Assembly: GCA_008632985.1 (NCBI GenBank)
Contig: QPGO01000078.1
Span: 62,001 to 126,000, forward strand
Length of the DNA: 64,000 bases
Source: Psammoneis japonica
Taxonomy: Eukaryota
Direction: 5' to 3'
The translations under genes were made by a program, and so were the position numbers. The notes below the pieces were generated by a model. It saw nothing but the letters and a program-made list of their open reading frames with translations. It did not search any database and had not been told where the DNA came from. Positions 1,503 through 54,817 of this stretch are shown here, one piece after another; within the stretch, counting starts at the first letter, position 1, and every line of letters starts with the position of its first letter.

Positions 1503-2022
1503 ACAAGAGTCATCAGCATTTAGGTAGTGCCGCAGCTCTATGCCGCGTTGGCGAAATGAGAAGGAAGGATAGATCGCAAAAATCAAAGATCTGGTCCCGT
1601 AATCCCGCACTGTACCGTACAGAGTGCAGACCTTGATTTGATGGACGACGAGGAAGAGAAGATAGAGCAAACAAAGCATCCTGGTAGTCTAGTTACCCTT
1701 GTGGATTGAGTCTCTGGTTTGACAGACCTGTTTTACTATGTACCGTAAGGTGTGCTAGTGTGCACATTCCTCACATTCAAAAGTTGAAAATTGCTCAAAT
1801 TTTATCGACTAATCTACCGGTTGCCATCATGCTTCACCATGTCTTACCTCGTAACTTCAACCAGTTCGACTTTCGATCTGCTAACTTTTTTCCTACCCTA
1901 CCATCGATTTTATTAGGTACTTCTAGTCATCCAACGAATATTGAAAATGAAGAACTGAGCTACTTTAGCTCTCTTATTCTAAGTACTGTGCATCCTGAAA
2001 ATCCAAGCTGAGCACACAACAT

Positions 2023-4399: not shown

Positions 4400-6800
4400 C
4401 TGTACGAGTAAGGGGTGGTTGTCGCGCGCAGTTTTCGCGGGCTGTGCGCGTGAGATCCGAATCGATTCTGGCGCCGTTGTCAGTATGTTGTTAGGTTTTT
4501 GCTGTCATCTTGGCGTGGTATCGATGGTCTCTGTGTGTAGTATGTTAGTAGTCGTTCCGTATGAGTGGTCTGGCGCGAGTGGGGGTCATTTAGTGTTTGT
4601 AAAGGGACAGACCAGCTCCATCCTCCCATTGAGGACGTCTTGAGCTGATCTGGGACGAAGGGATGCGTGATCCCCTGAGGCAACGGTGAGTCGCCCGCAC
4701 CAAAGTGATGCTCGTTCTCGCGTTAACATAGCCGCATACCTCTGAATATGGCTTTTGCCATTTCTCAGCTAGTTTTGCAGAGATTCTGCGCAGCGCTGCT
4801 TTGGCTTCCTTGCCAAACAGTCCGTCGCATGATGCGACGAAGGGAGTGAAGTGACGTCGTTGCTCAAGGCAGGGCTTGAGGTGCTTACGCTTTTTCTCTC
4901 GTTCGTGTTGTTCCAGAACTTCTTCCGGTGTCTTGGACAGGTGTGACTTCGCGTCCGTGTCCGGAGTGGGAACATCCATGATGGTGTCTGTCCTTTTGTC
5001 CCAAAATCCTTTGGACAAAAGATCTCCGCGGTCATCCTTGGACATGTTGGAGTTTGTGTTGCCTTGGGAGTTGTTGGAGGAGCCTGGGCTTCCTGAGATA
5101 TGACCAATGGGGTTAATGAGGGGTTCGTCGCGTACGCAGGAGGGCTTGAAGGCCGTTCCAACTAGGTCACCGAGGTCATCACGCACATCGTCGTGTCGTG
5201 AGATGACTGGGCCACCCTTTTTGCACTGCAGGGCATGGGCGATGAAGAATTTGCAGGCGCATCCATCGCAGTGCTCCGGGAGGTTGGGGGGAGTGCAGCC
5301 ATGTCGCAGATGGAGCGCGTCACGGAATTCTAGACAAGAGAGTTCCGTGCCGTTTATGATCGATGGGCACACCGACAGCCATGCTCCAGTGCTGGTGCCA
5401 TGCTTGACAGCTCTGGCTTTTAGGTCGGTTAGAGTCCGGAGGATTGTCTTGAGTTTCTCCTCGTGCATCTTGGCTTTCCTGTTGGCTGCTTCTTCCTTCA
5501 CTTCGCGCATGGTGTCCTTGTGGACTGCTGAAGAGAAATCTGAGCGGCCGCGGAGTGAGTCCATCACGTGAGAGCACGTGAGAGCACTTGCTTCATAGTT
5601 TTGGGATGCAGACTCCGTTGGACGAGGGATGGACAGTCCTGCAAATTTGATTGGGAGGGCAGATGGGGCCAGTCTCAGATCGTCATCTGCCAAGGTCTCG
5701 CCAATTGGTGCTGGAAGGAATTGGCGCTGGATCGCGCTCTCTGCTTCCGCAAAGGATTTGCCGCAGTCCTTTGCCACCCATTGGACGTGTTGCCACTGGT
5801 GTTGCAGGGACTTTTGAAGACCGGCGTGGGCAGTCTGCAGATGATGAATCACCACATTTGCGAGTCCTTGGACGACCGAGGTCCACGACTCGGCTTTCTC
5901 CGCTGGCCATCGGTCGCGTGCATCCGTCTCTCCGACGAAGCCTCCGAGGCAGCGGCTGCCTGAGCAGATGGTGAAGCCGAGGTCTCCAAAGCACGCCCTG
6001 GCGCTTTCCAGGTTGCGTTCTGGGACTGCCAGGATGTTCTTTTTGTCAGTGGCAGGGCAGCAACCATGCTTGGGTCCTTCGACTCGAAGAGTTAAGAAAA
6101 ATTCCTCAAGGATGTTGAATTTCCCAGCTGCAGCGGAGTCGTCGGCGCACCATGGCGTGAAAGCATCTTGGTGGATGTCATTCAACTTGTGGACTGGTGG
6201 GAGAAGGCCCAGTCCATGGGCTGCCATGCCAAGTGGGTCGCCCTGCGTGACACCTTCCTTGCTGAACAGTGTGAAGGTGGTGCCAAAGTGTCCGCGGACA
6301 ATTGGGATGCTCCAATGCTTGTAGCTGTTGAAAGTGAACCTGGCGCCGGATGGCCAGAGGTGTCTGACGTTGCACAACATCAGTGCTCTGTTCTCTTCGT
6401 TGAATCTGTTGGAGGCGTCAACGAAGAGGAAGCTGCAGTCATCCTCGAACTCATGCTGTTCCCAGAGGAGATTCATCGCATGAATCGCGCCTTCGATGCC
6501 TGCTTCTAGACCTGCACACAGCTGATCCGTTCCACAGGCTTCTTTGGCCTCTGCTCCAGCGACTGGGAGAACGGCTTTGGCCATGGCTTGTTGCCACACC
6601 TCTCCTGTGCCGACCGGGCGCACTCCCGGGTTTTTGTCTAGCGCGATGAGTCGCTTTGCCATGATTGCGCGGCAGGCGGCCCATGGGGGCGATTCATTGG
6701 CCAGCCAGTTTGTGAATGTGCGCAACGCTTCACGAAGCAATCCACTGGCTTCTCCACAGCGGAGCAGCCACTGCGACACTGCATTGGCATCGGATCTGCC
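4400..6800 (-). mobile_element. 5'-truncated CRE-like non-LTR retrotransposon (RT + zinc finger + restriction-like endonuclease), hypermutated; ORF 4590-6851
   Basis: RLIALDKNPGVRPVG, QLCAGLEAGIEGAIH, EGVTQGDPL, WCADD (YADD), CDGC..HALQCKKGG..RHD, RGDL, EKKRKH, FTPFV.S.DG; element ends approximate. Confidence 0.9.
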
Positions 6801-7407
6801 AAGCTTTGTGTGTGTTAAATTTGCCAAACATTTTTCACATGATCTCCTCAAGTGGACACCCCGTGCATAATTCTACGTCCTTTTCACGTGGGATTTCTGA
6901 TCAAATTTTCTGCCCAATTTGTTCCTGCGGGACTTGCTCAATCCTGTTAACCGCCCCCCACAAGACCCAACATGCGTCAATGAGGACACAATGAAAATGT
7001 CTTTCATGACTGCAAATCTACGACCACACGATTCCATGGCCACACAAACATGATGCAAGAACAAATCCATCACCCTGTCATTCCCTGCAACACCCTCTTG
7101 CGATGTGTGAATTGCCGCACCCGGAACCTTCCGCCCAATGCCAGAATGACGCACACATTGTTTTTTGTCTGCATCCCAATGGAAGCCGGTGCAACTGATC
7201 CATGCCTTTTTTGACTGTGTGTTCTTCTTCTCAGAATGCTCTTTGTCGAAAAAAAGGCATGCACCGAATCAGACCATGATGGTCCTTTTTTGTCACTGAA
7301 CAATCTCACCCCGTCCTTGCTGTCGCTGTTTTCGTTCTTGGAGATGAAGGACGGCATTCTTTTTTTATCATGTGTGAGTTAGCCGGGGTGGGGCCAGTTG
7401 GTCGCGC

Positions 7408-8085
7408 ATGTTTGGGTTCGATGTGACCGTCCAACTAGCCACACCCTGCAGAAAAAGCTGTTGGTGGCGCGCGAGCAGAGGCAACAACGCAAAAAAATGG
7501 CGTGGGGCGTGGGTCAAACGTTGTGACATGACACGGCAACAAGCAATGAGAAGAATCCCAACTGGACCCAGAAATGCATTGCACAAACATTGTCCAACAG
7601 GTTTGATCTCATCTGGAAACACCAGCTGGCAGACAAGTGAACGGCGTTCACGTTGCTCGCCATGGTGTTGTTGTGTGTTGTCGTGAGGCTGCTGTTGTTG
7701 CGCACGAAGGACGGACATCTATTTTGCCCACAGTGACTCTGTTTTGGCAACAGTGGAGTTTTAGCCATGTACAATCTTAGGACAATTTGAGAAGCGCTTC
7801 GCGACAACTCTGTTCGGGACGTTAAATAGAAATTTTTTTTATGCAGATTTTAAAACATGTTTTGGGGTGTTCCTCACTTTTTTGAATTTGGGCATGCATC
7901 TTTTCAAGACCGCAGCAATGTCAATGATGTGCAAAACCCCAAGAGACCCACATAAATTTGTCTTTAATGTAGACAACGTAGACTGTGTGCCGGCGGAAAA
8001 TCCACCGCACGTCAACTCACTCAGCAGCAATTCCACATTTGTTCCACTTGCACCTCACACACATGCACACGCCTGCACAGTCTAA
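7408..8085 (+). repeat. ~700-bp dispersed repeat, copy 1 (copy 2 at ~18920-19620)
   Basis: Shared blocks such as TTTGATCTCATCTGGAAACACCAGCTGGCAGA, ATTTTGCCCACAGTGACTCTGTTTTG, GAAAATCCACCGCA.GTCAACTCACTCAGCAGC. Confidence 0.85.
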
Positions 8086-8249
8086 CAACCGCGCACACGT
8101 GCGCGAGACAATCACCGCAGTGGATTGAACCAACGCCACTGTAACAGCAGACGTGGTGCACCACATGGAGGTCGTCGCAGCCACGCAGGGTTTGCTCGTC
8201 GTCACAGTGGTTCTGGTCTTGCTGGTGTTGGCGGTGTCTGGGGTGGTGG

Positions 8250-9190
8250 GCGTGGACATGGCCGTGGTGGTGGCCCTCCTTTTGCATCTCATGGTGGAAC
8301 ATCGCACGACGGCAGTGATGGTGACGGCAACAGTGTTGGTGGCAACATCCTTGCAACCGGTGGCCGTCCCAAGCCCTGCTGATGGATGTCATGGTGGACA
8401 TTTGTGTGACAGCAGTGGGCGTGGACATGGCCGTGGTGGTGGCCCTCCTTTTGTGTCTCATCATGGTGGAACATCGTGTGATGGCAGTGATGGTGACGGC
8501 AACAGTGTTGGTGGCAACAGCCTTGCAACCGGCATCCGTCCCGTGACCAGCCCTCCCTGTGGATGTCCTGGTGGACATTCGGATGACAGCAGTGTGCGTG
8601 GATGCAGCCGTGGTGGTTGCCCTCCTTTTGTGACTCATGGTGGAACATCTTCCAACGGCAGTGATGGTGATGGTGACAGGGTTGGCGGCGACAGCCTTGC
8701 AACTGGTGGCCATCCCGTGATCAGCCCTCCCGATGGACATCGTGGGGACATTCGGATGACAGCATTGGGCATGGTCATGGTCGTGATGGCGGCTCTTCTT
8801 TTGCATCTCATGGGGGAACATCGTCTGACGGCAGTGATGGTGAAGGCGATGGGGTCAGCGGCGATGGCCTTGCAACTGGCAGCCTTCCCGTGATCAGGGG
8901 GGTCATGGTGTGCAACATCGCGGTGGGGGCTGTCTCGGCCGCAGTGGGGGCCGTTGTGGCAGCCGTGGTGTTGGGCGTGGACAAGGCCGCGGCCGTGGCC
9001 GTGGTGGTGGGTGTGGTAGAGGCCGTGGTGGTGGTGGGCATGGATGTGGCTGTGGTGGAGGACGTGGCGGCCGTGGTGGTGGTGGGCGTGGATGTGGCCG
9101 TGGTGTGGGCCCTCCTTTTGCATCTCATGGTGCACCATCGGATGACGGCAGTTTTGGTGGTGGCACGGGCAACAGCCTTGCAACCGGCAG
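8250..9190 (+). repeat. Degenerate tandem array (units of roughly 170-180 bp, ~5 copies) encoding Gly-rich GHGRGGGPPF.SHGGTS.DGSDGDG
   Basis: Recurring GGCCGTGGTGGTGGCCCTCCTTTTG..TCTCATGGTGGAACATC and GGCAGTGATGGTGACGGCAACAG. Confidence 0.8.
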
Positions 9191-9245
9191 CCGTGGTTCT
9201 GACACTTTTGTCAGCCCCAACTCATCTTCTTGATCGGTTCCCGCG

Positions 9246-12200
9246 TTGGTCATGACAGGTGCTCATTGGGACACCACCTCATCACCCGGCGAACCGGTGC
9301 TGAAGAGGAGGAGATGGCTCAAAGAACGGCACAGTGACTCTGAGACAGATGTGCTTGGCAATGAACGGCACAGTGACTCCGAGATGGATGGGCTTGGCCC
9401 GAACAACCAGATTCCAAATGTAGATGAGTTGGCCAGTGAGTCTGATGACGACAGCGATGCCAACACAGAGGTCAGCTGTGACTTCCTTCAAGGTCGGCAT
9501 GTCGACTCGACGTCTGATGATGTCGACGATGATGGTTTCGGTCAAATGCACTGCCCGGACAGGGCCTGTGGGTGTCAGACTCTGTTGGATGACCCCGTTC
9601 AACCTTCCGTGAGTGCGTCAATTGATTGCACAAAATCCGCCAAGCCCACCGATCTAAAGTGTGAAAGCATCAATGTTGCTTGTGCGGACTCGGAGTCTTC
9701 ATGCCGCCACAAAACTCATCTGTTGTTTGAAATGCGCAACGAACCCATTGCCGCTTTCAAGGATGAGGACAGCTCCAATCTCACCTGTCAGCACGCCCGG
9801 CACACATCATGTCTTGGCGTGTGAGAGAGCCGATCATGGATTTGTGATGGCGAACAAGCTTGAGTGCTCACCTCATTTTACTCTGGGGGATTTGATGCTC
9901 GCCAGCTGCAAGTTAAAATGCAATCATTTGAACATCCAACATGCCGAGGCAAAGGCCGGCAAGCACAACACCTTGAAGCATGGGGGGAATGTCGCGTTTG
10001 CATCCATTGGCGAGGAAAGCTTTATGGAGGACATCCTGTCTCTTGACCTTGAATCCGCATGGTACAATGTCATGGTGAAGGATGATGAGTCGGATCCTCG
10101 GAAGAAACATGTGGCGCAATGTGGCCCCAGGGGCAACCGAGGATTTGCCATCGGAATTTGTGGGGACCAGTGTGTTGATTGTGACGAAGATGGGATTGCT
10201 CATCCAGAATTCAAGACCGGGACCACCCGGTGCACTCCTTTGATGTTGGCATTCAACAAACTTTGCAAGAAAGCTCACTCTGCATTCCTTCCCGACGAGC
10301 CGTTCATGGACAAAACCCTGTTTCCCACTGGGAGGAAAGACTTCGCCACAAAAATTCATGAGGAAATGGACCTGGAGTTTGTTTCTTGCAATTTTTTGAT
10401 GCATCTGAACGATGGGTCGTACATTGGACCGGACCGTTTAAAGCGTCACACCGACTCACAGGGGTGCCGCATGTGCAGTGACCTGCATGATGCATGGCAA
10501 ACGTTTGTGTGCAAATGCACCAATGTCAGGGTGACGGCTGCAACAACGGGTGGTTGGAAAAATTCAGTGTCTGACTGTTGTGAAAGGATGGAAATTTTTG
10601 GCAAGGCAAGTGATCACTTGATGCACCAGTGCAACCAACTGCCGGCCGAGCAACGCAAGGTGGTTGCCGCCCTCCACTGTCCAGACACAGTCCCTGTCAA
10701 GACAACACCCGTTCATTGCCAGCCATTGGTCCAAATGGCGTCACTGTTTGACGAGATTCTCAGAGTCTCCAATGCACTGGCCGAGGATGGCCGCACAATG
10801 TCGGGTTTCCTGTTTTTGGAAATGACACATGGTTTTCATGCATTCTCCAACAATGCATGCCGATGTGAATTGTTTCGTCGTTCTTACATGGAGGTGAGTG
10901 AGTGCGATCCTTTGCCTGTTGTCCATTGCATTAATTTCATCGGCTGCTCTCACTCCCGGTTGCTTCTGTCATTTGCCAGGATTGGGGCCACTCGTTTCGC
11001 CCTGGTTGGTCGTGCGCCAAGGAGCGCCGCAGGTTCCTGGGACAGAACTTCCCATCCTTCGATGGTTGCCGTGACTTTGACGGTGAAAAGGTCGGTGGCA
11101 TCCGATTCCAGTCGACACAGTCTCACCCTGTGATGGATGACAGTTCCGACAATGCCTGCCGAGAATTGCACATGATTGTGTCCCCCCACCGCAATGTTTC
11201 CATCTCCCATGTCGCGTGCAAGAAACTCATCAAGAAAATAATTTCAAAAGTGCCCGGTGCACAAGATCTGAAGTCTCAAAAGGTTGTCACCGGTGGTTTT
11301 GCCCTGGCGAAAGAATTTGACATCAATGTCTTGAACATGACGTATCCGGGAAGTGACACAGGAATGAAGAAGCTTTGTTTGGCTGGCTTCGACATTCCAA
11401 ACAAAGAATCTATGACAATGGTTGTCAAGAGTGCATCTACAAAGACGAAATTGCCCGTCATGAATGGTGAAGAAACAACTTGTGTCGTCACGCGGTCGAT
11501 CGGTGACGGCCGCCGTAATGAGGGCGAGGACAGCATTCCTCGCAACGTTCCCACTCCCTTTTCACAACTGAATGACGATGGATTGCCTGAGGTTTGTTTG
11601 TCGGACAAGTCCAATGGCCGACGACCATGATTGCTGCAGCGGATTCATCTAAATTGGAGCTTGGATCCCACGGCAAATCATCATGTGCCGACCTGGGCGC
11701 CGGTGAATTGCAATTCGGCCGACACTGTGAGTCAATGTCTGGCCACGAGAAAGCTGTCTCTCATGGCAAGAATGCCCACACTGAAAAATTGTGAGTGGTC
11801 TCACAAGGCCAGGACTGCCGTTCAGGGGCGGGAGAAGTTGGAATGGATGACACTGTCACTTTAACGGATTTCTCCGACACCGTGGCTGTGTTGCAGAAAT
11901 TGTTGAACAAGGGACAACACCTGGCGCTTCATGATCCATCGGAATTTGTTGCAACCAAATGCTCGGGCATCCAACGCAAATCTCTGGTTGAATCAATCGA
12001 AACCAAGAAGCACTCTGACGGCTCTTTCGAGGCCAGTCTATCCTGTTCCGACATTCCCCGACATGTGAAGACCGCTCAATTCGGGTCGCTTCACAAAGAC
12101 CACTTGCCACCACTTGGACCAGTCGGCCAGGACAAGGGATTGCACAGCACCAGACATGATGCCTTGAGCGCATTGTTGTTGACTCTGATGTTTGAAACCA

Positions 12201-12454
12201 ACTGTGGAAATGGCAGGAGCTGGTTGTGGCACTGTCTTCGAATTGCTCGTGAGTTTCTAGCGCTGTTGCCGTCGTCTAAAAAAAATCCATCTGTGGTGCG
12301 GGTGGTTGCAACCGTGTGCAGAGAATCCAAGAATGCATCACGGGAGCCCCGGGTGCATGCAAGACACTTGTCCGAGAGCGATGGAAAGGCACTGCATCCC
12401 TTGGAGGTGGCAAGAGATGCCCATGGTCAATTGGATGGTTTCTGTTCGTTGTGA
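9246..12454 (+). pseudogene. Large hypermutated gene of unknown function inside the repeat block, with an intron at 10894-10979
   Basis: Collinear ORFs 9246-9824, 9661-10893, 10980-11630 and 11795-12454; removing the GTGAGT...CAG intron joins the frames; Tyr nearly absent, His/Cys in excess. Confidence 0.55.
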
Positions 12455-13837
12455 AGCACTGCTGTGTTTACATTGTTGCATCTGAAACAGAGATGTGAAC
12501 CATCTTTGCACTGTCTCATGTTGGTGAACTGGCCTTGGCAGGGTCAACCATCATTGCACTGTCTCGTGTCGATCGAGCTGGCCTTGGTTGGGTCATGTGC
12601 AATGGTGACATGGGCAAAAGCAACCCGCAAAGCACATTGCATGTTGCACGCACATGCAGCACGGTGGTGGACAGGAGTTCATGTTGGACGCAAATGGGGT
12701 GGAACAGTTGGTTTGTTTGTTTGTCGGCAAGTGCCCGAACCCAACATGAGTTGCTTTGTTGGACACAAACGGGGTGGAATGTTTAGTTTGTTCGTTTGTC
12801 GGCAAGTGCCCGAATGCAACATGAGTTGCTTCGTTTGCAGTTGTTGGCTTCCTTGCCACAACGGCGTCCAGCTTCCTCATTTTCTCATGTCGCTCTGCTT
12901 CCACCTGAACAGCTTTGGTGTCATCTGTTTGACTTTGACGGGATCTTTTCCTCACCGGCAACTTGTTCGTTCTAGACGCAAGGATGTCTTTGTGCTGCAG
13001 TGCAGCTGAATGAGAACACTTGGTTGTCTTGCAGAACTCTTCACAGTCGCCCATGTGAAGGGTGCGGCCACCCGGCAAATGTTTCATTGTCACATGGCAC
13101 AGACCCGTGGTGAGCTTGTACAATGCGTCATGCGAGTGCTTGCAATCGCCGACAAAGTGACCCCTCAGGGCATTCTTGCAGTCGATTGTTCGTGTTGGAT
13201 CGATGGGTGTCCCAAGGGACTCTTGGGTGTTCACCAAGCAGCCACCCTTGTGTGCAACCATGTCCTTCTCCAAATCCATCTTGCCAATTTCCGCAATGAC
13301 GTTTTGGGTGAGGGCCTTGTCCCAGTCGAGAATGCGCCAACCCTTTCCAATGGCAGAACACTCTTGCGTGTGTGTGTGCATCAACCCGGGCAATGCATCG
13401 TTGAGTGCACGATGCATCGAGACACCAGAGGGAAGCAGACCAACGAACTGATTGCTTCCTTGCATTTCAAGATTCATTCTGCAATGCAATGAAAGGCAAA
13501 CCGCGTGAGTGTGGAATTCAGCAACATGCAATGACAACAGAAAGGGCACGGACTCACCTTTCGTGCGAGTTGTTTTGGGGCACGCAGCCCGGCTCCCCGA
13601 ACGTGGAATGATGCCACCAAGAAAAATCTTTGTTCTCGACATTCTGGCAGTCAAACACCTCCGCAAGCTTTGTCTCTCCTGCCATTTTCCATGAATGAAT
13701 GACCACCTTGGCCATTGGGTAAAACAGCTCCCATGTCTTGCATCGATGAAGCTTCCTCACGTCCTTCATGGCCACCCTCATGAGGAAGCTTTGGTCTTTG
13801 ACGCACTTGCGACATTGTCCATTGTGCTTTCTTGTAA

Positions 13838-14659
13838 GAGCATCTTCGCCAGTGAGTCGTAAACATAAACCTATGTCCGTACGTCTTCCGATACGAATGA
13901 GATTCGCAAAAAATCATCATTTTCGGTGGATCGTAAGCATATTTTTTGCGCTAATAACCCTTTTCGAATTTACGATTCATGAAAGTGAATCGCAAATCAG
14001 GCCTTGGATACGATCCACCTCCAAAATCGTAAACGAAAATCGTAAATTTCTGGTACAAAAAGGGTGTAGAAATCCTGTAGAAAGTGCGTGTCACCATGAC
14101 GAAACGACAATCGACGCTTTCTTGATGAGAGGGCCTTACAGAGGCCCAACAATTAAGACTTTGTCGTATCTTATGAACTTACATACGGCCGCATCGAGAT
14201 ATGGGAGGAGAACCGACATATGGGGGGTTTATGGGGTCAGAAGAGAATAAGGCATAAATCGTGTGATAACATTTCGCTTGTTTTCGCGATGTAGAATGAC
14301 TTTCACAACATAGTAACACATAGACATATAATATGAATTATTCTCTATTGATAGACGTCGACATATCTTTGAATAGACGGTGATTTGTGTCGTATATTGC
14401 GTTCAAAGCCGCCATGGCGTCATGTAAAATTCAACAAGTCCGTCCTACCATCAGTTAGTTATTGATATACGTGTATGGAGTTGGTTGTTACCTCAACGTC
14501 TGCCCAACCATCGGCCGAATGTGAATACGATTGTGATCGACTGAAAATGATGGTCGCGTGCAGAATCGTAAACTTATACGGGGCAGTCTGTTCGCTTGTC
14601 CTTTTAGGTTATGTTCCTATGTTTATGTTTATGTTTGCGACTCACTGGCGAAGATGCTC
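13838..14659. mobile_element. PIF/Harbinger (Tourist-like) MITE, 822 bp, TAA target-site duplication
   Basis: 33-bp TIRs GAGCATCTTCGCCAGTGAGTCGTAAACATAAAC (one mismatch); TAA at 13835-13837 and 14660-14662; excision restores the MULE frame (..KFRTDFTRKHNGQ..). Confidence 0.9.
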
Positions 14660-15245
14660 TAAAGTCGGTCCGGAATTTACGTGTGAGGTGTGGGCAGCAA
14701 GTTGCAAAAGGATCTTCGGGAAACAACAGTTTGATTGAACGCGTTCTGGAATGAGTGCGAGTGATCCGAGCACAACCCGCTGCCAAAGTGCAAGTCATCT
14801 GTGCCAAACAAATCGAAAGCCGCCTTCTTCATTGCAAGCAGCAGGTGCAGCGCACCCTCTTCGTGCTCCGCTGTTGCAAGTGCACAACCGACAGGCTTGA
14901 ATGAGGACGAAAAATGTTGCTTGCCCCCCCTTTCTCATTTTGTGTGGTCCGTGACTCCAAAAACAATGGTCACAAAATCATTGCCGACCACACTGTGCAT
15001 GCCGTCTGTCGTTCCAACTGTTTTGAAGTCGAGGTCCTTGCAGTCGCACATGTTTCTGAGCAGCCCAAGGGACGAAAAAACGATTGTGTTGTCCATTGCC
15101 GGCAAGAATGGACCCTTGCTCCCCTTTTTCTTGTTGTGCAATTCCTCGGCATTTCTCTGACACAACAGCATCCTGTCTCGAACCTTTTTGGGAAGGTCGC
15201 CGAGGTCGGGGACCGGAAGACAAAACATGTCTGTGTGGGGCATTC

Positions 15246-16562
15246 GATGTGTTTTCATCCCAGGTGAGAAACGCGCATGCGGAGGTGAGACGTTTCGTCT
15301 GTCCCTTTTCCATCGCCGTGCTTTTTGTGCGAGCAAATCTGACTGGACTTTCCCCCGATTTTTTGTTTCTTCTTTCCACAGACATGTTTATTTTGAAAAG
15401 CCAGCCGTTGTTCTCATTGGTTGAAGGGTGCGTACAAGAAAAGCGCTGTCTCGAAAGCGGCATTTTTTGGAGTGAAGCTGACAGCCATCTGCTCGTTGTT
15501 GTCATTCTGGTGCATTTGAGAGACTGTTCCACTGTTTCTTTCACCAAATCTGACTGCTTTGAAAGAATGCACGCATTGTTCATTGTGTGAAGAGCTCATG
15601 CCAAAAAAGAACGGCGTTCTAACTCCATCATTTGCACAAGAAAAATCGGGGGAACTGACTTTGCACGTGATTTTTTTGCGCGATCGGCCATTTCAAAGAT
15701 CGACTGATTTGTCGACCTGTGTGGGACACTTGAGTGAATAAAACAACAGGATTGAAATGGCAGCGTCAAAGTTCAATGTGTGTCTGGTTATTGTGTGATT
15801 TGATGTGCCCAAGCAGAGTTAAAGATGAAATGTTGACAAAATTTCACCGCTCAAAATGACTGGTTCTATCTTAGAATAAAATAAAATGGCTGCAACGCTA
15901 AGATGTCGCTGATGGTGTTGTTCTACTTTACAACAATGAAACTGTCACACTTGCATCTGAGATTCTTTATCCTCACACACCCTCAAAACCGAACACATGA
16001 CGATTCTCTTGTCGGCAGCGAAATCTGATGTTGTCGCGCGACCCAAAAGCGTCGTCCATGACGACTCAAAGTGCGGACGATACATTGTAAGAATCCCAGC
16101 AACGTGTCATAGAAACATTCTTCATTGTCAGTGTCCGGTGTCAAGCAGATGGAGCAGCGCGTTGATGAGAATCCTACTTCGCAAGCTGAGGAAGAGAGAA
16201 AGAGGTGTCAAAAATGTCATGAGTCAAAAGGCCATCCATGAGGCACAACAAAAAACAAAGATCAAATTTTCAACCACATCATCGCATTGAGCGTTGTCTT
16301 ATTGACCTGTCTTGGCATTCTCACCTTCTCAGTCACAACATCCGTTGGTGCAAGAATGGACGAGTTCATGGCGACGGCATGGTGCCATTTTCGGTTTGCG
16401 CGAATTGTGGTTTGTGGTTCGAGACATGGAAAAATATATTTTTACTGTCATGGAGCTCGTTTTTTACTAAGATTTTTGGTGCTAAATGTACGTCTCATGT
16501 AGAAACACGTAGAAAACCTCGTGATGTGTCCAAAAGTTTCTCACCTAGGATGAAAACACATC
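15246..16562. mobile_element. Non-autonomous TIR DNA transposon, 1317 bp, 4-bp TSD ATTC (superfamily uncertain; Sola is one candidate)
   Basis: 27-bp TIRs GATGTGTTTTCATCC[C/T]AGGTGAGAAAC; ATTC at 15242-15245 and 16563-16566; excision restores the MULE frame (..SKEGMPHTD..). Confidence 0.85.
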
Positions 16563-18919
16563 ATTCCCTCTTTGCTGTGTCGCTTGCCCCGGCATCCGGT
16601 GTCGCACAGATCTTTGGCGAGTTCCATCATGTGAACCTCGGAGGACACCAAATGGGGCTTGCAGGTGGATGGAAGACACAGAGCATGGTTTCAACTGAAT
16701 GCAAGCAAGTCTTGTGTGTGCTTGATCTTGACCTTTTCAGCGGGATTGTCCCCGAGGGATGACTGGGGACGTTGATCGTTGCTTCTGTTGTTGGAATCAA
16801 GCAAGTGACAAATCTTGTTGCTCACCTTGTCCCTCAGTTCTTGGGTGGCAAACAATGGGGCGATGGACGGGTTTTCGGAAACTGACAGTTTGGCAACTGT
16901 GCGGCGGGTGATGTCCTTTGGTTTGAGGGACGGGTCGTCCTGTTTTAGCTTGTCCACGTGATCCTTGACCAGCGGCGGCAAACCTCGGGAACCAGTGGAC
17001 AGCATGTGGTCCACCCACGTCCGGCGCATGTGGGTGGAGTGATCTCGGAGGATGCGACATTTGCAGTGCTCCTTGCCGGGGAGCATCACTGTCTCAGCTT
17101 GAAAGGGACAATCCTTGTCAACCTTGCAGCTGTGTGTTGTCGTGATGGGCTGCAGCGGGTCTTGTCTCCTCAGGAATGTGTTGTTGTTTCTGTCCGTCTT
17201 TGCGTCTGGACCTGGAAAATGTTTTGCCTTGTTTGCGGACTTCATGAGGTCGCCTGGAACGAGGTCAAGGGCACGGCCGGAACCATGATCATGGCGGGGA
17301 ACCGGCTTGGGCAGAGAAAGGCTGCTGGCTGTGTCGGGGCCACACAGCTTGGGTGGAATGGCTCCCAGCCCATGAATTTTGGAATCTCCATTGACAGATT
17401 CTTTGCATTTCATGACGGAGGAAGATTTCTTTTTCAGAAAATCATCACAAATGGCAGCAAGGAGCTCGTTGCCCCTTTTGCCCAAAATGGAGTCTCCAAC
17501 GTGCTGGACCCGCTCAGCAAACGCTTTGGAGTCCGGAGCAAAAATGGAGCGATCCTCAGTGCTGATCTTGCGAGCCACGACCGCAAGACATGAATCTCTG
17601 ACGGGACCGGGACCCACCCCTTCAGCCAGAGATCGGAGGCGGGTGGCGGGAGATGGAAGGTCGCCGTCGCTGAGACAAGACATCAAAAGAGTGGTGAAAA
17701 GGAAAAACGCCATGGCAGATGTGCTGAAACGAAGGAAGCGGAACAAAAAGAGCATCACGGGGTGCCAGATCTCAGTAGTGTGACAAAAAGTTTCCCGCCA
17801 AAACATCAGTCCCACAAGATCCGCAGGTCCCGCAAATGCTGCCAATGACAGGCCTCATTTCCGTTGATGGAATCAGCTTCTTTTGCCATGAACAAGTTGG
17901 GGAAAATTCAAACAAAGTTTGTCAAACAAATGTTGCCAATGCTGCCGAACGAAGGGCAAGATCGGGGGCGGGTCGACTCGATTAATTTCAAAAACAAAGG
18001 GCAGCAGCAACTCGCTTTCACAAACCCAGACACGAGAGCAAGTGAGGCATCTGCAAGATGACGAGAACGAGAGGAAATGCATCGCAGAACAGGTGAGCAA
18101 CAGGCGACGGCGTGGATCAACCAACACAAACAAGAGCTGATCCTGCGTTGTCACGTCTTTCATTGCACAGGCCGAAAAGGAACGGATCGCCGCCTGCAAG
18201 AAGCGTCTCTCGCACACAGCACTTTTTCCACCCGAGGCAGCAACCCAGGATGGCGATGGTGCTGAGACGACTGCGACGTGACTCCGAAGGTCGAAAGCAA
18301 GGCGCGATGAGTGAGATTGTCAGAGGGAGGGGCGGGTCTGTGTCCGCTGAGCCTCAGACTCCTGATGCCGCCACTGGAGGAGCCGATGGAAGGGCGCGGG
18401 TGACCGGAAGATTGACCAGCGGGGTCCGTCGCCAAGCCACTGGGAAATTCCTCAAATGTCCACGACACCAACCAACTGTCCACAAGGAGCTGTGGCACCT
18501 TCCCAGAGAGTCAAGGGGAAGGAAGATGAAGGACCTGTGGGCATGATGGGAGGGCGAAGAGCGAAGCCACCACGAATGGACAGATGATTCTTGTTTGTGC
18601 TGTTTGGCTAAACGGCCATGATCTGGGAAAGGCAGAGCAGGGTGGAACAATCGTGTGATGAAGGCACAACATCGCCGTTTGTCGGGACCGATTGAGGCAA
18701 GACGAGATTGCATTTTGTTGACTTTGTGCCCAAAAAACACCGAAAAATTGCACTCACCATCATGTCTGGTTGCATTGAATCCAATTTTTGAATGTTTCCA
18801 TTGGGGTGTCTTTCGGTCATTTACATCAAATTTTTCTTAAATGTTGTGATGGCCCGCAGACACACGAATGACCACATTGCAGATGCACATGGCAAGCTCC
18901 AGCAGCAGTTGGTCATGCA

Positions 18920-19620
18920 CGTTTGGGTTCGATGTGATGAGCAACTGTCATGCCACCCTGCAGCAGCCATGCCCTGCAGGAAAAGCTGTTCGGTGGTGGG
19001 CGCGCACGCGATCAAGCAGAGAGCAGAAGCAACAAAGCAAAAAACATGGCATGGGGCGAGACGTTGTAAAGTGACACGACAACAAGCAATGAGAAGAAAC
19101 CCAACTTGACCCAGGAACACAGCACACAAATGCATTCCAACAGCTTTGATCTCATCTGGAAACACCAGCTGGCAGATGAGTGAATGGCGTTTGCGTTGCT
19201 TGCCATGGTGTTGTTGTGTGTTGTCGTGCCGCTGTCATTGCGCATGAAGGACGGGGATCCATTTTGCCCACAGTGACTCTGTTTTGCCAACAGCAGACAT
19301 TTTGCTGTGTGCAATCAGAGGACATTTTGAGAAGTGCTTCATGACAACCCTGTTCGGACCGTCAAACAGAGTTTTTTTTATCCAGATTTCAGAGTCCTTG
19401 GGGGTGTTCTGTCAGACTTTTGGGTGGGTGCATCTGTGAATTAAAGGCACAAGAAAATTCAATGACATGCAAAACACCAAGAGACCAACACAAATTTGTC
19501 TTCCATGTGGACCACGTAGATTGTGCACCGGCAGAAAATCCACCGCATGTCAACTCACTCAGCAGCGGTTCTGCACATGTGCTGCTCACACCTCACACGC
19601 GCACACACACCTGCACAGTC
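18920..19620 (+). repeat. ~700-bp dispersed repeat, copy 2
   Basis: Collinear similarity to 7408-8085. Confidence 0.85.
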
Positions 19621-19685
19621 CAGTGACCGCACACACGTGCACAAGATGAAGGACAAATCAGCGATTGTGCAAGCAAGCAAGCAAC

Positions 19686-20180
19686 CCACTCTCCATCGTG
19701 AGTCCATGCGTCGACCGATGCACGCACTTCGCACATGTGCCCAGTCACCACTCTCCATTGTGAGTCCATGCGTCGACCGATGCACGCACTTCGCACACGC
19801 ACCCTGACCACAGATTTTCAAAAAGCACAGATTTCCCATTGTTCAGCTAAACCTGGGGTTGGTTTTTTCCAAAATTTGCCAAATTGTTGCGATCTTTGAA
19901 GAACCCTTCTGCAGGCCCGGCGTGGCAAAAGCAGGCCCGGTGCGGTCTGCGTGCACTTTGCGCACTGCGCACATTTGTGCCACTGAGGGGGGAAGACAGA
20001 AGGGGTCAGATTCCAGATTTTCCATTCTAAAATCTCACTGATTTCATGCGGCCCCCAAAACAATCTTGCAGATTTTCAAATCGACACAGATTTTCCATGA
20101 TGATCAGGGCACCTGGTCACCACTCTCCATCGCGAGTCCATGCGTCGACCAATGCGTGCGCTTTGCACATGTGCCCGGTC
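19686..20180 (+). repeat. Three 62-bp tandem units, the second interrupted by a MITE
   Basis: CCACTCTCCATCGTGAGTCCATGCGTCGACC at 19686, 19748 and ~20120. Confidence 0.85.
19802..20109. mobile_element. Hypermutated Tc1/mariner-type MITE related to 58313-58628; left TIR partly deleted; TSD reads CA/CA
   Basis: Right end CACAGATTTTCCATGATGATCAGGG vs CACAGATTTTCTATGATGATCACGG; shared internal TTTGAAGAACCC, ACATTTGT, CAGATTCCAGATTT. Confidence 0.75.
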
Positions 20181-21153
20181 ACCTGATGCTGCAGACTCTC
20201 AGAGAATTCAGACAGATGATGTGCCAGGGACGTGTGTGGCAAATGTGTTCCGGCGCTCTTGCGGATTTTGAGATTCCGGTGTGTTTCTGCACACGCAAAA
20301 AACTTTCTGCACAAACTTCTGCACAAAACATGCCAGAGGGCACTGGAGCAACCATCTGTCTGCATTCTTGATGGGCTCCAGTCCCAGGTGAGACTCCGTG
20401 TGACATTGGGCCCACAGAATTCTGCGTGCGAGCTCCGCAGCAAATTTGTTGAGCAATGAAAATGCAAATGATCGCCAACAGAAAAAGAGGCAATTTTACG
20501 AACGCATCTCCTCCTCCACACTTGCAGCACATCATCAACAGTTTGCTCGGGTGTGTTCTCCAGACATCAAAGAATGCACCCAGAGCATTTTCATTCTTGT
20601 GAATGTTGAAAATGGAAAGCCTTTGGCTTTGCAAAATGGGGAGCATGAAACAATTTCGTAGAATGTCACACGCAGAAATCTGCATGCGCGACATGCCACG
20701 CGATCCAAAAAACTCTTGATGTCACAGTGCAGCAGTGCTGGGTCCCACCCAGAGCTGGAGCGCATCTCTCTGAGAGTCTGTGACGTGACCGGGTGGGGTG
20801 TGAGAAGCGCGCACTTGTTGGTTGACGCGCGGAATCACGATGGAGAGTGCGAGCAAACCGTGGGACCAACACAGTGCTCACCACAAAAATCGATTGATCG
20901 CAATGATGCCGTCACACTGTTCATGATGCCCATTCCAGGTGATGAACATCGCAGCACACTGGATCTGACAAAGTGAGCAAATGCTGCCATGGCAGCTGAA
21001 AATCGGGTGTGAGACAAGACAGAGTGTTTTGAGCAGCATCAGCAGGTTCTAGAATTGTGAGATGTTGCGCCACTGGGACCGCTGATCAAGCGACAGTGGA
21101 CCAATGGCCAACAGCATGTAAACTGCCCATGTTTGTGACAGCATGTCAGCATT

Positions 21154-21157
<4 letters not shown>

Positions 21158-21223
<66 letters not shown>
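21158..21223. repeat. (CA)33 microsatellite
   Basis: Direct reading. Confidence 0.97.
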
Positions 21224-21225
<2 letters not shown>

Positions 21226-21799
21226 GCAAGAGAAAATGGTTGGGTGCACAGAAACAATGGCTGCTCAAGAAGCCAACCAGTCCCCCCAGAATGACAAAGA
21301 GTCTCTCTTTTTTGTCAAAAGGCATCATGAATGATTCTCTGTTCAAGGGTGGGAAGTCCCTTGTTTTTGGGGGCATTTTGGAAATTTCGCTGGAAAAATG
21401 GACAAAACAAGACAGCATTTTTTGCGAATGCGTGCGATTCATGGAAAAATGCTCAAACGGCTTGAGCGCGAATTCTGAGCATGCAAACAACACGACAATG
21501 GCTGAGGTGCCGTTCGTTGAATGCAGTGGAGGTGGGGAGGCCTCCAACTTTCTTCGTGAGTTTGTCACCCATGTCAAACACGACACACCCTGAAAAAAGT
21601 TGGAGGCTGCCCCACTGAGTTTTCGAGAACGAACGGCATTTCGGCCATTGTCGTGTTGTTTGCGCGGTGAGCGCCGAACGCACTGGGATTTTTTTCCACA
21701 ATTGCATCACAAATGATTAAAACGTTTGTCATTTTTGATGCTTTTTACAAACACATGTCAAAAACACAAGGGAGTTCCCAGCCTCAAAGCTGCAGAAAA

Positions 21800-22480
21800 G
21801 AACACAGTGGCTCAACATTGTTTGTCAATGTGGGGCAATGTTTTTTCTTGTGTTTGCCTTGCTGGGGTCCAGAAAAACCATCACATTGTGGCAAGCACAC
21901 ACTCCTCAGATCCAGCTGGAGCCGTGGTTTCCATTGCTTGATTTTCACAATTTTGAACAGAGCCAAAGGGAGAAGATGGCTTTGAAGGGAAGAAAATGAC
22001 AGAGCTTTGTTGAAGCCAAGAACAGCCAGGTGCAGCTGACCGAACCAACCTTGTGGCACTGCATCAGACTCCAACAAGTCCATGTTTTGCAGCAAAAATG
22101 GCTGGAGAGTCATCAAACTCATCCTGGCTTTGTTTCCACAGAGGCGCTTGGCTCTAAACAAGATTCATCACATCACATTCTTGTTGCCATTTTTGAGAGC
22201 AACTCAGTTGGGAGGCAACTGCGCTGACATTGTCAGAGTGTCCATGTGTCCACACAGCCTGAGCTTGCAGCTGGTTGAGAACAGAGTGGAGGAAAGCACT
22301 TCAATGGCAGCAGCCAAGTCAATCATGCTGGCAGCTGGGTCCAAAGGAGCACCAGCTTTTTTTGCATCACTGGAACAATTTGAGTGTGTGTTGCATCGCC
22401 AAAAAAGCATGTTGTGGGTCTTCCTGCATGGGGCAAGATGATGTTCAAAAGGAGAACAAAGGGATGATGGATGGTCAATG
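21800..22480 (-). repeat. Degenerate coding-like dispersed repeat, copy 1 (copy 2 at ~35060-35730)
   Basis: Shared GCCTTGCTGGGGTCCA, GGTTTCCATTGCTTGAT.TTCACAATTTTGAACAGAGC, GTCATCAAACTCATCC, CAATTTGAG..TGTG.TGCATCGCCAAAAA. Confidence 0.8.
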
Positions 22481-23269
22481 AAAGTTGGCTCCTCCTTTGT
22501 GGTGGGAACTCTGGACATGCAGTGAGGAGGTGTGGAACCTGGGCTGATTTGTGCTGACGTGCACGCAAGTGTCAACTTTGAGCTTTCCCCTCAACTTGCC
22601 ACCAGCCAGTTAAAAAAGATTTCATTGTCAATTGACAAGCTTGCTGCCAGCTGAAGTGCTGTCAAATGCACATGCACAGAATGGCGTGCAACACACCACA
22701 AATGAAAATCTGTGATCTTGTCATTTTGGGCTCTTGCACTGAACAATGTGGAGGCAACATCATGATGATCTGCGCATGACTTTCTGCTGTTGTCACAACA
22801 TGAGACAACTGGGGTCTTGAGTTTGGCTGCATTCTGTGTTCTCAAATCATTGTTTGTCCTGGCTGTTCTTCCCTTGTTGGTGGGTGCTCTCTGTTCAATT
22901 GAGTGACAACACACAAAGCCACAATTTGCAACATGCCAGTTGTGTTGTGATTGCTGCAGCTTGCACCCACAATGTCAGTTGTGTTGCAAGTGCTGCAGCT
23001 TGCAGAGATGATTGTGACATGGGAGCAGATGATGCAGGCACTTGCCTGTCATGTGATGGTGGTGCAGTGGGCAAACAGAAAGAAGTGCCCTTGCAACCAG
23101 GGAAACATTCTAAAAATTGGAGCAAATGCCCAGAAGCACTTTCTCAGCAGTGTTGCACCACTGGCTGGATCCCAACATCTCATTGCATTGCTCCTTGGAG
23201 AAGCACATGGCGCTTTTCTTTCCATCAACTTGAGCAGGGTGTTGCGCCCATCTGACAGCATGCACAAAT

Positions 23270-23850
23270 TTAATCTCTCTTCAGTGGTTGCTGAAGATGC
23301 AGACCATTTCTGGTCTCAACTCTGGAAAGCATGACATTGTGCACCCAGTTCTGGGTGCACACCTGTGGCTCCAGCTGTGCACAAGCACATTGTTTGCACC
23401 ACTTCCTTGCAGCTTGTGCCCGGTTGTTGCATTGTTCATTGCATTGGCAGTTGTGTTTTGCATTGGGTCTTTGATGCAGGCTTTGAACATGGTTGATTTG
23501 GGCTTGAGTGAGAAGGTTGGTGGGCCAGCACTTTTGTTGCTGTGTTTGAGCACCACATGATCCACCTGGGATGCTGTCACACCTGGAGCGAATGCTCCAC
23601 AGTCTAGAACAACCAGTGACGAACTCTCTCCCAGTTTCAGCATGACTTTCACTGCAGTTGCCTGTGCTCCACTTGCAGTGCTGCTGACCACATTGTCATT
23701 GTGTGGTGTCATCACTCTGCACCCCACATGTGTTTGCAATGCTGGGTCAAGTCTTCCTGACTGCACAGCTGCAGCGCTCTCCCCGCAGTTCTTCCAGAAC
23801 ATTTTGCACTCAACAAAAGGTCCACCATGCCTTCAACACTTGACAGCATC
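23270..23850 (-). mobile_element. PIF1-like helicase C-terminal remnant, probably from a Helitron
   Basis: RLDP.L...GCRVM...N, NNATTGHKLQG, and in a shifted frame VMLSRVETRNGL (SF1 helicase motifs T.HK.QG and YV.LSRV). Confidence 0.7.
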
Positions 23851-26800
23851 AATGTGAGTCTGTTTGTCAGCCCCTCATCAGCACTTGCAACTCTGAGACC
23901 CATCATTGTGTGGCAAAAGGTGGCAGCACACAAAAAAATGATGGTGGCTCATCATCTCACATTGGCTGATGCTGCGCCACCAAATCATCATGGACTGCAT
24001 TCCATTCAGCAGCACCAGCAGCAGTGTCATCACCCTGGTGGCAACATTGATGGATTTGAGGATGCATGCGAAGATGCTTGCAGTGCATTTGAAGATGAAG
24101 CTGGTTCTCCAAACATGAGTGCTGCAATTTCATTCAAGGAAAACTCATTTTGTGAACCCCGTGAGCAGATGGAAAACAACTGCATTGACATCTTTCATCA
24201 ACAAGCTGTCTCACCATTGCCAACCTGCTCCTCTTGGTGGAACAAGCTGCCACATGGATTCAAGATCTGGGGACAATTTTTGATGACATGAGCACAGTGC
24301 AGGTGGAAAATGCCACTCTTCTTGACACCTTGACCGTGGCGGGCACAGATGTGCAAGACAATCATTCACAGAGAGGGACAGCAAGGGAGCTTCATTCTGT
24401 GTTTGCAAGAATGAAAATCACTGACATGTGTGCAGCAGCCAAGAGACCCAGCATGTTGGGGAGGCTCCTCTTTGCCATCATCCAAGGCCTTCTTGAGGCT
24501 GCCGCTGCTTGTCATTGTCAATGGATCATTTCAAATCAGCAAACCATGATGCAAAGAGATCCAAGATGAAGACATTTGCATTGTCGTCAAGCAGTGCTTG
24601 TTCCATGTGTGCAGCCGGCAATTTGGAGCCATCAAGACATCCCAGCAGGACAACTTTTGTGCCAGTTTCTGAGTCCACAAATTTGGCTGCCAAGCAACTT
24701 TGTTTGTCAGGGTGGGGATGAAGCTTCTTTTGCCTCATCTCATCACTTTTGGAAAAAGATGAAGAAGCGTGCAGACTTGAAGAAGAAAAGGCACCTCTGC
24801 TGCTGCCATGGCAACATTGAGGTGGATGCACAGGCAACAACACGGTGCAAAAAGGTGCTGTGAGCAGCAAACAGGCCAACAACAACTGAGCCCTTGTTGT
24901 TCATCCATGTGAAAACATTTTTCAATTGCCAAAAAAAGACCTGACACATCATGTTTCTAGCTTTGAAGCTGCTTTGCATGCTTTGCTTGCATTGTGCATG
25001 CGCTGCTGTGAATTTGGAAACAACAACAGTGTGATTTCTCACCCAAAGCTCCAACCAGCACTTTGCACAGATGTCTGTTCCACATGGAATGTGGCATTAA
25101 AAAATCTCATGTTGGCTGTTGTCTGAGTCATCTCTGTCATTTGATCAAATCACACACTCTCATGGTGCTGTGCTGTGGCGCACACTGCAATCTGTGAAAA
25201 TTGGACATTCTTGAAGGCTGCTGCATTTTCTGTGGGATCCATGTGCACAAAGCTCAAATTTCATGCCCAAAGCAACAACTGCCCCTTTGTGCAGGAAATC
25301 GTGCAATGGAGACCAGGACAATTAAAAAATGGGTGACAGCGCATGTGCACAAAAAACAGAGGAAAGATCCCAAACATCAAAAGATCCATGACATCAAGCA
25401 GTTGTGAGAAAGACATGTGGCAAGGTTGTTAGAGACAATGAGATCAAAGCAACTCCTTCACTGTCAGTCTGAAGAAGCAGCTCTTAATGTCACACATTTG
25501 CACTGCAGGCTTGTGCACAAAACCAGCCTTGAACCCAAAGGTGAGCCACAGTCACATGCTTGTTCCACATCTGTGCTTGAGTTGACCTCAACACCATGCT
25601 TGATGCATCCCAACAGGCTCAAGCTTTCAATGTTGCCCATTTTTTTGATGGAGCCACAACAAGGCAGCTGTGGGAAGTGAGCTCACCCCAGATTTCAGGG
25701 ATTGTCTCGTGCTTTTTGGCTTTTGCCAAAAGAGCGCAAAACTTCTCATCATTCTGATGTCTGGGCCAGTTTTGCATTTTCATTGCATTGCACTCCAAGT
25801 TTGCATTTGTTTGCTGCAAGGTTGGCACATCTCTGAAGACAAAGACAGTCAAGCTCCACACACTTTCAGCAGATTTGCAAGAAATTCAATGTGTGGTGTG
25901 GGGACATCCAGAATGAATTTAGCCAGTGGCTTAAAACCTCCTGTGGAATTCCACACATCAGTCCTGGCATGCCAAACATTTGAGCACAATGTCTTTTGAT
26001 GCCACCCCATTGTTTTCTGTTGTGTGCATGTGCGCACATTCAGTCTTTTGTTTTTCAGCATGTTTTTAGAAGCTCAAAAGCTGGAGGTTTCACAGTGACA
26101 AATGTCACAGTTGGCAACAAACCACCACAGATGTGATGTGTTTCCAGTTTCAACAAAGTGTGGAAGGCAAGTTTTTTCTCTGCAGAAAACATGCCATTGT
26201 CCCAACCTGACATGTGCCTGCACAAGATTTCAGCCACTGGCTGGGGCCCCAAAATCATTCCCAACTGGTGCTTGGCCATCAATGCACCCGTCTGCACTGA
26301 GCGGCACCCGAACTTTGGTGTCACAAATTTTGAGATGCCCTTTTCCTGCACCATGGCAAAGAGCCCCCTGACTCACCCCGGGCTCATGATGGGTGCAACT
26401 GTGAGTTCTCCACACAGCACACCCTTCAGTGCAAGAAGGGCGGGCCAGTCATCTCTCAGCACAATGAGAGCGATCCGTGATGAGCTCGGCTGCCTGTGCA
26501 CTTTGGGACTCCCACTGCTTGAGTGTGGGTGGGCCCAAGCAATTCTAAAAACCGTCAACGGCCGTCACTGTGTAATTTGGCAGCATTTTGGCACTCTGTG
26601 TGTGAGGCATTTATGCAGAAATTACACATGTACAAACATTGGGGGAAACGAGCGCAGAGAAGAGACGACGCGAGCGAAGCACGAGCGGAGAGACCGACAA
26701 TGATGCAAGTGCCGGAGAGAGATGCAAGGAGAGCAATCCAACGACATTGCAAGGGCGCAAAAGAGAGGAAAGATCCATTTGAGTGAGCACCACATCTTCA

Positions 26801-28950: not shown

Positions 28951-29223
28951 AATTCCGCACCATAGATTGTGTGGCTTGCAAGTGCCATCAGCTGTGGTCT
29001 CATGTGCTGTCAGCGGGGCCTCAACTCTGCACGCAGCTACTTCCATCTCGCTCGCTCGCTCCAAAGGCACTCTCCCACCCCTGTGGCAGGGGAGAATGTG
29101 GTGATGTCATGGTCATGTGGCAGCCCACATCTCATTCATCACATTTTCACACAAATGTCCTCACATTTGTTCACGCATTTGTGCACAAATGCCAACAGCA
29201 GCAGGAAAAATCCTGAACCATGT

Positions 29224-31319: not shown

Positions 31320-31384
31320 CTGTGGAGTGGGAATTTTCATTGACCACTCAGTGGTTGGTGATTGCAGACTTTTTCGCGTCGGTC

Positions 31385-31435
31385 CGGCAGTCGGGCAGTC
31401 GGGGGGTCGGGCAGTCGGGCAGTCGGGCAGTCGGG
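31385..31435. repeat. 8-bp (GTCGGGCA)n short tandem repeat, ~6 copies
   Basis: Direct reading. Confidence 0.85.
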
Positions 31436-42873: not shown

Positions 42874-43026
42874 CTTTGTCAACAAAGCAATGAGAATTTT
42901 GCATGAAGAGCATGCAGAAAAAAGACTGGATTTGTCAAAGCCACCCATCACTGCTGCCGTGGCGGCAGTGATGGTTTTGTCGGTGAGTTCGCCATTGACA
43001 AAAAGGAAAAGGCGGAAGGCATTGGG

Positions 43027-54397: not shown

Positions 54398-54817
<420 letters not shown>

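Follow-up and report, generated by a model that had tools for sequence, protein, structure and literature searches.

So far we know of a single account of TpA-directed hypermutation in mobile DNA, that of the chlorarachniophyte Bigelowiella natans (Mettrop et al., preprint of 2026, bioRxiv 10.64898/2026.01.13.699255). This preprint reports TpA hypermutation of integrated giant-virus and virophage DNA, and mutation-accumulation lines in which this integrated DNA acquires almost exclusively TpA to TpG or CpA changes. It also describes an enrichment of TpA-poor coding sequences for reverse transcriptase, DDE domains and unannotated open reading frames (ORFs), and its authors propose an ADAT2-like adenine deaminase as the enzyme; diatoms are not mentioned in it. 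Here we consider a 64-kb stretch of the Psammoneis japonica contig QPGO01000078.1 (positions 62,001 to 126,000, hereafter the window), in which long blocks have lost their TpA and four inserted elements, A to D, each have terminal repeats that differ at a single site, with TpA on one arm and CpA or TpG on the other (a TA-type mismatch). We consider it somewhat probable that the mismatches of these lightly touched elements are products of the same TpA process that erased the blocks, acquired in the lineage of each family or at a low rate.

All composition, inverted-repeat and ORF scans covered the full 64-kb stretch unless stated otherwise. Sixteen blocks between positions 5556 and 54998, with a total length of ~32.7 kb, have an observed/expected (obs/exp) ratio for TpA of 0.00-0.10. 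CpA and TpG are up together in these blocks, at about 1.3-2.3, and the blocks occupy the spaces between recognisable host genes, whose own blocks have a TpA obs/exp of 0.5-0.8. The TpA/ApT ratio drops from 0.33 over the window as a whole to 0.04-0.2 within erased blocks, and (CpA+TpG)/(ApC+GpT) amounts to 1.5-2.3. Clustered TpA depletion coupled with CpA and TpG enrichment, the type of signature described for B. natans, is therefore what the window displays. Compared with that species, the signature is the same in kind, with TpA-only transitions to TpG or CpA depending on the strand and with the mutated DNA clustered in blocks that may be of foreign or mobile origin. It is stronger in degree (0.00-0.10, against a Rho of 0.45 in the B. 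natans virus region) and belongs to a different supergroup lineage, the host being a diatom-like stramenopile instead of a chlorarachniophyte. The targets differ as well, since those seen here are a retroelement and DNA-transposon-like repeats, and de novo mutations come from mutation-accumulation lines in B. natans, whereas our comparison uses contigs of one sample.

Repeat-induced point mutation (RIP) of ascomycete fungi changes CpA to TpA, so that the DNA becomes AT-rich and TpA-rich. The window resembles RIP in that dinucleotide-specific transitions have ruined repeated or mobile DNA in place, with block-wise shifts in composition. Unlike in RIP, TpA is destroyed here while CpA and TpG are gained; the raised TpA/ApT and lowered (CpA+TpG)/(ApC+GpT) typical of RIP are not seen, and the composite RIP index has strongly negative values throughout.

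The direction of mutation could be read from one retroelement ORF:

4593-6872, minus strand: reverse-transcriptase ORF of a retroelement, 760 codons, used to set the mutation direction.

This ORF belongs to a large reverse-transcriptase family (146 matches, many with PF00078, best identity 53%), with named members from Fragilaria, Cyclotella and Attheya. Tyr columns were taken as conserved when at least 70% of 40 homologues had this residue. In the 10 columns of this kind, Tyr was kept in 2 and replaced in 8, by Cys in 4 (TGC) and by His in 4 (CAY, i.e. CAT or CAC), and each of the TGC, CAT and CAC codons lies one transition away from TAY. There were also five Leu to Pro changes, every one of them CCA. 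Among 19 other conserved residue types, 18 were retained at 67-100%, with Ile at 47% (7/15, 4 of the changes being Ile to Val). The Tyr to Cys and Tyr to His codon changes set the direction as TA to TG and TA to CA, and their equal split means that both DNA strands were affected, which tells against sense-RNA editing. In hyperediting of the ADAR type (A to I, on double-stranded RNA) a U is preferred before the edited A, as is also discussed in the B. natans preprint, and the context (A after T or U) is thus that of the changes in the window. However, editing of an RNA copy would fix sense-strand changes only, and here Cys and His replacements are balanced, CpA and TpG rise together, and a DNA-transposon-like element is also affected. 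To judge from the sequence, a TpA-specific transition process (a "mutator") is present in this genome and changes TA to CA or TG on both DNA strands. The initial annotation of the window had posited such a mutator, and the composition of the 32.7 kb and the Tyr replacements bear this out.

Comparison of repeated sequences showed that the changes accumulated copy by copy. In 8 pairs of paralogues within the erased blocks, we counted 71 aligned CA-versus-TG double differences against 9 for AC versus GT, which served as mirror control. The same swaps occur within a tandem repeat inside D:

30408-31119: 181-bp tandem repeat, copies of which differ by CA-versus-TG swaps, with 9 columns that hold only CA and TG.

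Such swaps between paralogues and repeat copies indicate that the copies mutated independently, in place, after duplication. Many CpG in this 181-bp repeat are still intact. CA/TG-only columns are absent from another tandem repeat, which lies at 47645-48169 in TA-normal DNA; its unit is ~54-57 bp, its TpA obs/exp reaches 1.46, and it lies between two erased blocks. CpG decay of methylated transposons has the same end state, CpA and TpG, and explains 4 of the 9 terminal-repeat mismatches as well as most window-specific changes of element B (both given below). It leaves unexplained the loss of TpA, the Tyr to Cys and His changes, and blocks with a TpA of 0.05 but a CpG of 0.7. CpG is also depleted in the erased sub-blocks 22000-26400, 34421-36765 and 49010-54998 (obs/exp 0.14-0.31, falling to 0.00-0.2 in single 500-bp steps), whereas other erased blocks retain a CpG obs/exp of 0.5-0.8, so that two processes of different reach act here. 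Overall, the old blocks have lost ~90% of their TpA versus 30-50% of their CpG.

Against this background we consider the following elements:

13838-14659: element A, an 822-bp non-autonomous DNA transposon with TAA duplications at 13835-13837 and 14660-14662.
13838-13870, plus strand: left terminal repeat of A, with TpA at 13860-13861 (T at 13860 in TCGTAAAC).
14627-14659, minus strand: right terminal repeat of A, the CpA arm, with G at 14637 (in reverse complement TCGCAAAC).
15246-16562: element B, a 1317-bp high-copy element with ATTC duplications at 15242-15245 and 16563-16566.
15246-15272, plus strand: left terminal repeat of B, the CpA arm, CCCAGG with C at 15261.
16536-16562, minus strand: right terminal repeat of B, CCTAGG with TpA at 16546-16547 (A at 16547).
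58313-58628: element C, 316 bp, with a TA duplication and 28-nt arms at 58313-58340 and 58601-58628 that have 1 mismatch.
29075-32115: element D, with 20-nt terminal repeats that have 1 mismatch, and a 7-bp CACTCTC duplication at 29068-29074 and 32116-32122.
29225-29306 and 31238-31319: pair E, an 82-nt inverted repeat inside D with 5 mismatches, all transitions.

The arms of A (33 nt) and of B (27 nt) likewise have 1 mismatch each; when those of A are stretched to 37 nt (95% identity), a second mismatch appears that is not TA-type. With its terminal inverted repeats and its 3-bp TAA/TTA duplication, which we take to be a mark of the PIF/Harbinger superfamily, A has the features of a miniature inverted-repeat transposable element (MITE) derived from this superfamily, and an autonomous copy for its terminal repeats was not found within the 64-kb window. 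C, with its TA duplication and terminal inverted repeats, has those of a Tc1/mariner-derived MITE; its left arm reads GATTATC (T at 58320) and its right arm GATCATC in reverse complement (G at 58621). The arms of D read GGCAGG on the left (C at 29087), in TA-erased DNA, and GGTAGG in reverse complement on the right (TpA at 32102-32103), in TA-normal DNA. Each of A, B and C thus carries one terminal-repeat mismatch, always TpA versus CpA or TpG, just as the initial annotation had said. By self-BLAST, no additional copies of these three elements were found in the window, and a metagenome scan with the terminal-repeat pattern of B returned only one bacterial chance match (L001).

A scan of the whole window for inverted repeats (arms of at least 18 nt, identity of at least 85%, 30-8000 nt apart) gave 13 pairs; a target-site duplication or long arms support no more than five of them, A to E. 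These five pairs contain 9 mismatches, 5 TA-type, 4 CpG-type and none of any other kind (A being counted on its 33-nt arms); pair E contributes 1 TA/TG and 4 CG/CA or CG/TG mismatches, and the single-mismatch pairs are TA-type in 4/4 cases (A, B, C and D). The null models had uniform substitution at one end and strong transition bias at the other, with a tenfold CpG boost in some of them; they give a probability of 0.07-0.25 that a single random substitution in the arms is TA-type. Multiplied over A, B and C (3/3), this amounts to 0.0006-0.0095, and with D included (4/4) to 5e-5 to 2e-3. The pattern of TA-type mismatches exceeds chance, though the sample is small and the pattern was noticed post hoc. 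These two reservations also favour a reading in which chance and ordinary transition bias placed three or four independent transitions on CA/TG or TA steps, with no part played by the erasing process. So does the abundance of CA and TG, the commonest dinucleotides here, through which many transitions make or remove a TA; under strong transition bias the per-mismatch probability rises to its upper value of 0.25. We consider this reading unlikely in view of the null products and of independent support from family B, where 5/6 non-CpG transitions among the listed variable places are TA-type versus ~24% expected (binomial estimate ~0.004).

The mismatches might also have arisen in the opposite direction, by deamination at methylated non-CpG cytosines (in CAG/CTG or CAH context) that turns CpA into TpA, comparable to fungal RIP or plant CHG methylation. 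The mismatches of B and D do lie in a CAG/CTG context (CCCAGG and GGCAGG), the CpG decay of these elements demonstrates that they are subject to cytosine methylation, and at position 15900 of B the TA of the window stands against TG in most of the family. Yet every polarisable site runs from TA to CA or TG, TpA is erased in this DNA and not enriched, and the CA arm of D is the arm inside the erased domain. In addition, a subterminal motif of A reads TCGTAAA in 6/8 occurrences, the two exceptions (TCGCAAA) being the right terminal repeat and one further copy, which favours TA as the older state. Altogether we regard a CpA to TpA origin as quite improbable.

Whether the mismatch states are private to the window copies or shared by their families was approached with public contigs of run X1 (from the same sample as X2 and X3), aligned to 12001-18000 at 80% likeness, a range that covers families A and B. 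The X1 contigs hold 78% of the sampled 31-letter words of 10001-20000, which makes a base-calling artefact at modified TpA unlikely as an origin of the signature, with the caveat that X1 may be the source of the assembly. Both A and B are multi-copy: the summed contig depth was 1167-1783 for A and 6700-10235 for B against 115-220 for the flanks (depth not being copy number), and loose contig ends mark the limits of B exactly at 15246 and 16562. The flanks themselves are low-copy repeats within TA-erased DNA:

11612-13666: TA-erased block left of A, TpA obs/exp 0.07, a low-copy repeat with 5-8 contigs at 13619-13764.
16690-25285: block on the right side of B, likewise TA-erased (25 TpA over 8596 bp, obs/exp 0.05), with 9-14 contigs at 17677-17866.

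Paralogues of the flanks were found without A (joint from 13823 to 14662) and without B (joint from 15245 to 16701, in a record ~79% alike), which means that A and B inserted into a repeat that was already duplicated.

The four mismatch positions of A and B (13860, 14637, 15261 and 16547) are not among the listed places (40 of 991 variable ones) where ~80% or more of the depth differs from the window. A change confined to one copy of so large a family would be expected in that list, as is the case for position 16133 of B, where the window has TG and 98% of the family depth has TA, so that the arm states are probably common to much of each family. The mismatch states of A and B thus appear to be shared by their families instead of being private to the window copies, and 16133 looks like a copy-specific change from TA to TG. 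Among the 17 listed variable places of B, 5 are TA-type, 8 CpG-type and 4 other, and the window carries the CA or TG state at 4/5 of the TA-type places. At 8 of the listed places the window differs from the family, comprising 5 CpG decays in the window copy, 1 CG/CA, 15900 and 16133. Side by side at 15897-15900, the window has CG and TA where the family majority has CA (100%) and TG (79%); the window copy of B may come from an older subfamily that keeps both unmutated states there.

The TpA content of the elements adds to this picture. A is TA-normal, with 59 TpA and an obs/exp of 0.84 between flanks of 0.05 and 0.03, whereas B has an obs/exp of 0.28 overall, 0.08 in its left 374 bp and 0.35 in its right 943 bp. 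In B the window-specific changes correspond to 5 of 65 CpG and 1 of 30 TpA targets, and a comparison of these per-target rates with the losses in the old blocks indicates that bulk erasure has not been at work on this copy. From these counts, the A/B locus has seen no bulk hypermutation after the insertions; the data lean to family-level or low-rate changes, and to a bulk erasure that was finished before A arrived.

The initial annotation had read the mismatches differently, as copy-specific first hits on young elements after their insertion, by a TpA mutator that is recent or still active at these loci. In its favour are the TA-type enrichment in the terminal repeats, the TG at 16133, and element D, in which the erased state stops at ~31492 and the arm on the erased side has lost its TA, so that erasure postdates the insertion of D. 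Nevertheless, none of the four A and B sites stands among the listed window-private places as 16133 does, A retains its TpA within a saturated block, and the window-specific changes are mainly CpG decay. We therefore consider private first hits quite unlikely, and that part of the earlier claim was not upheld. Its suggestion that the mutator is recent or ongoing fared in a mixed way, drawing on the enrichment and on 16133 while being opposed by the TpA-rich state of A and the prevalence of CpG decay. The annotation had also named the outcome that would speak against it, i.e. mismatches common to the family, and to this outcome the A and B sites conform, as far as can be judged from 40 of 991 places.

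In the explanation we favour, transposon-rich DNA would have passed through TpA to TpG or CpA transitions, on both strands and in place, with ordinary CpG decay running alongside. Old elements would now be saturated, with nearly no TpA remaining, and A, B, C and D would be younger and only lightly touched. At their mismatches TA would be the older state and CA or TG the derived one, probably gained during the descent of each family, or else at a low rate, and not through fresh changes on these copies. The most economical model for the enzyme would be a DNA adenine deaminase with a preference for A preceded by T, directed to silenced chromatin domains. If the families acquired the mismatches in this way, the process overlapped their lifetime, which is not to say that it runs now.

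Several observations weigh against this explanation. The argument rests on four single mismatches, none of them polarised by an outgroup, and C sits in TA-normal DNA (TpA obs/exp of C and its flanks 0.63-0.67). Run X1 may be the very sample from which the window was assembled, in which case it is not an independent check; moreover, the variable places considered are 40 of 991, and wherever such a place is supported by X1 alone, a fraction of 0.79 or more of the depth disagrees with the window. Contigs unanimously depart from the window at three places of A (13906, 13937 and 14133), with no TA-type change among them (0/3). Window-specific changes in B affect CpG five times as often as TA (5 versus 1; per target 5/65 CpG versus 1/30 TpA), whereas the TpA/CpG loss ratio of the old blocks would predict mostly TA changes, and at 15900 (window TA, TG in 79% of the depth) the majority rule reverses the direction.

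The edge within D bears on how the erasure is confined. To its left, 2417 bp (29075-31491) have a TpA obs/exp of 0.07, and to its right 624 bp (31492-32115) have one of 0.86. So sharp an edge within one element suggests that erasure is bound to a domain and not to an element. The TA-normal part of D adjoins an apparently intact gene, the edge lying just upstream of ORF 32045-33832. In a bolder version, a TpA-specific DNA-editing defence ("reverse RIP") would still be active in this diatom, erasing TpA inside sharp-edged chromatin domains such as the one that ends at ~31492, and the TA-type mismatches together with 16133 would be its first marks on newly arrived MITEs. This possibility is rather doubtful.

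As to what the erased blocks once were, one holds the reverse-transcriptase ORF and another is the element D with its target-site duplication, while most have neither a Pfam match nor a homologue. A Pfam scan of 133 ORFs gave nothing at E≤0.001 in 125/133, and relaxing the threshold to E≤5 in the reverse-transcriptase and zinc-finger ORFs yielded sub-threshold matches only. The sole Pfam matches with E≤0.001 in erased DNA fall in 41692-43473 (plus strand), where C2H2 zinc-finger matches (E 2.6e-4, 21.9 bits, below the Pfam cut-off of 27) were found together with a PhyH/2OG-Fe(II) oxygenase match (E 2e-6). Three long ORFs, at 9658-11130 (plus strand), 12596-13756 (minus strand) and 16694-17854 (minus strand), have 387-491 codons, almost no Tyr and no useful homologues; a homologue search found none for the flank ORF 12596-13756 and 2 weak matches for 16694-17854. 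In-silico removal of A and B gave no fusion of the 387-codon ORFs in the two flanks. In a Markov simulation the longest ORFs reached 199-454 aa, and those of 200 aa or more numbered ~6 per 32 kb, against 14 observed. Since TAA and TAG stops have been erased, long ORFs in this DNA arise largely by chance and are poor evidence of genes, which is a practical warning for the annotation of such sequences, as the loss of these stops yields long spurious ORFs.

The TA-normal blocks contain host genes for PP2C, flavodoxin-like, histidine phosphatase, CDPK, Deg-type protease and subtilase-Hint proteins. The best named relatives of the PP2C ORF (237-1688, minus strand) are from pennate and other diatoms (Mayamaea, Fragilaria, Phaeodactylum, Fistulifera and Cylindrotheca) at 41-58% identity, with none identical in the collection searched, and on the basis of such protein likeness the source of the window DNA is a diatom-like eukaryote (a stramenopile). 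The subtilase-Hint ORF (61702-63999, minus strand) is open at the window end and encodes both a subtilase (Peptidase_S8) domain and a Hint module. A perfect microsatellite of ~420 bp (54399-54818) terminates at the sole N of the window (54818), probably an assembly gap.

We found no report of TpA hypermutation in diatoms in the literature searched, although papers beyond its coverage are possible, and in a 2025 preprint on diatom transposons none of the terms that we looked for was present. The window thus brings the TpA signature known from B. natans to a diatom-like genome, where it has been carried to saturation. The young, datable insertions A, B and D, nested in erased domains, provide a clock. 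Given the complete genome, the rate of change per TpA in copies whose relative ages are known would distinguish between an episodic, a domain-bound and an ongoing process, and could direct the hunt for the enzyme. If a "reverse RIP" that is still active were the correct explanation, it would, together with Bigelowiella, point to an old defence common to the SAR (stramenopile, alveolate and rhizarian) lineages.

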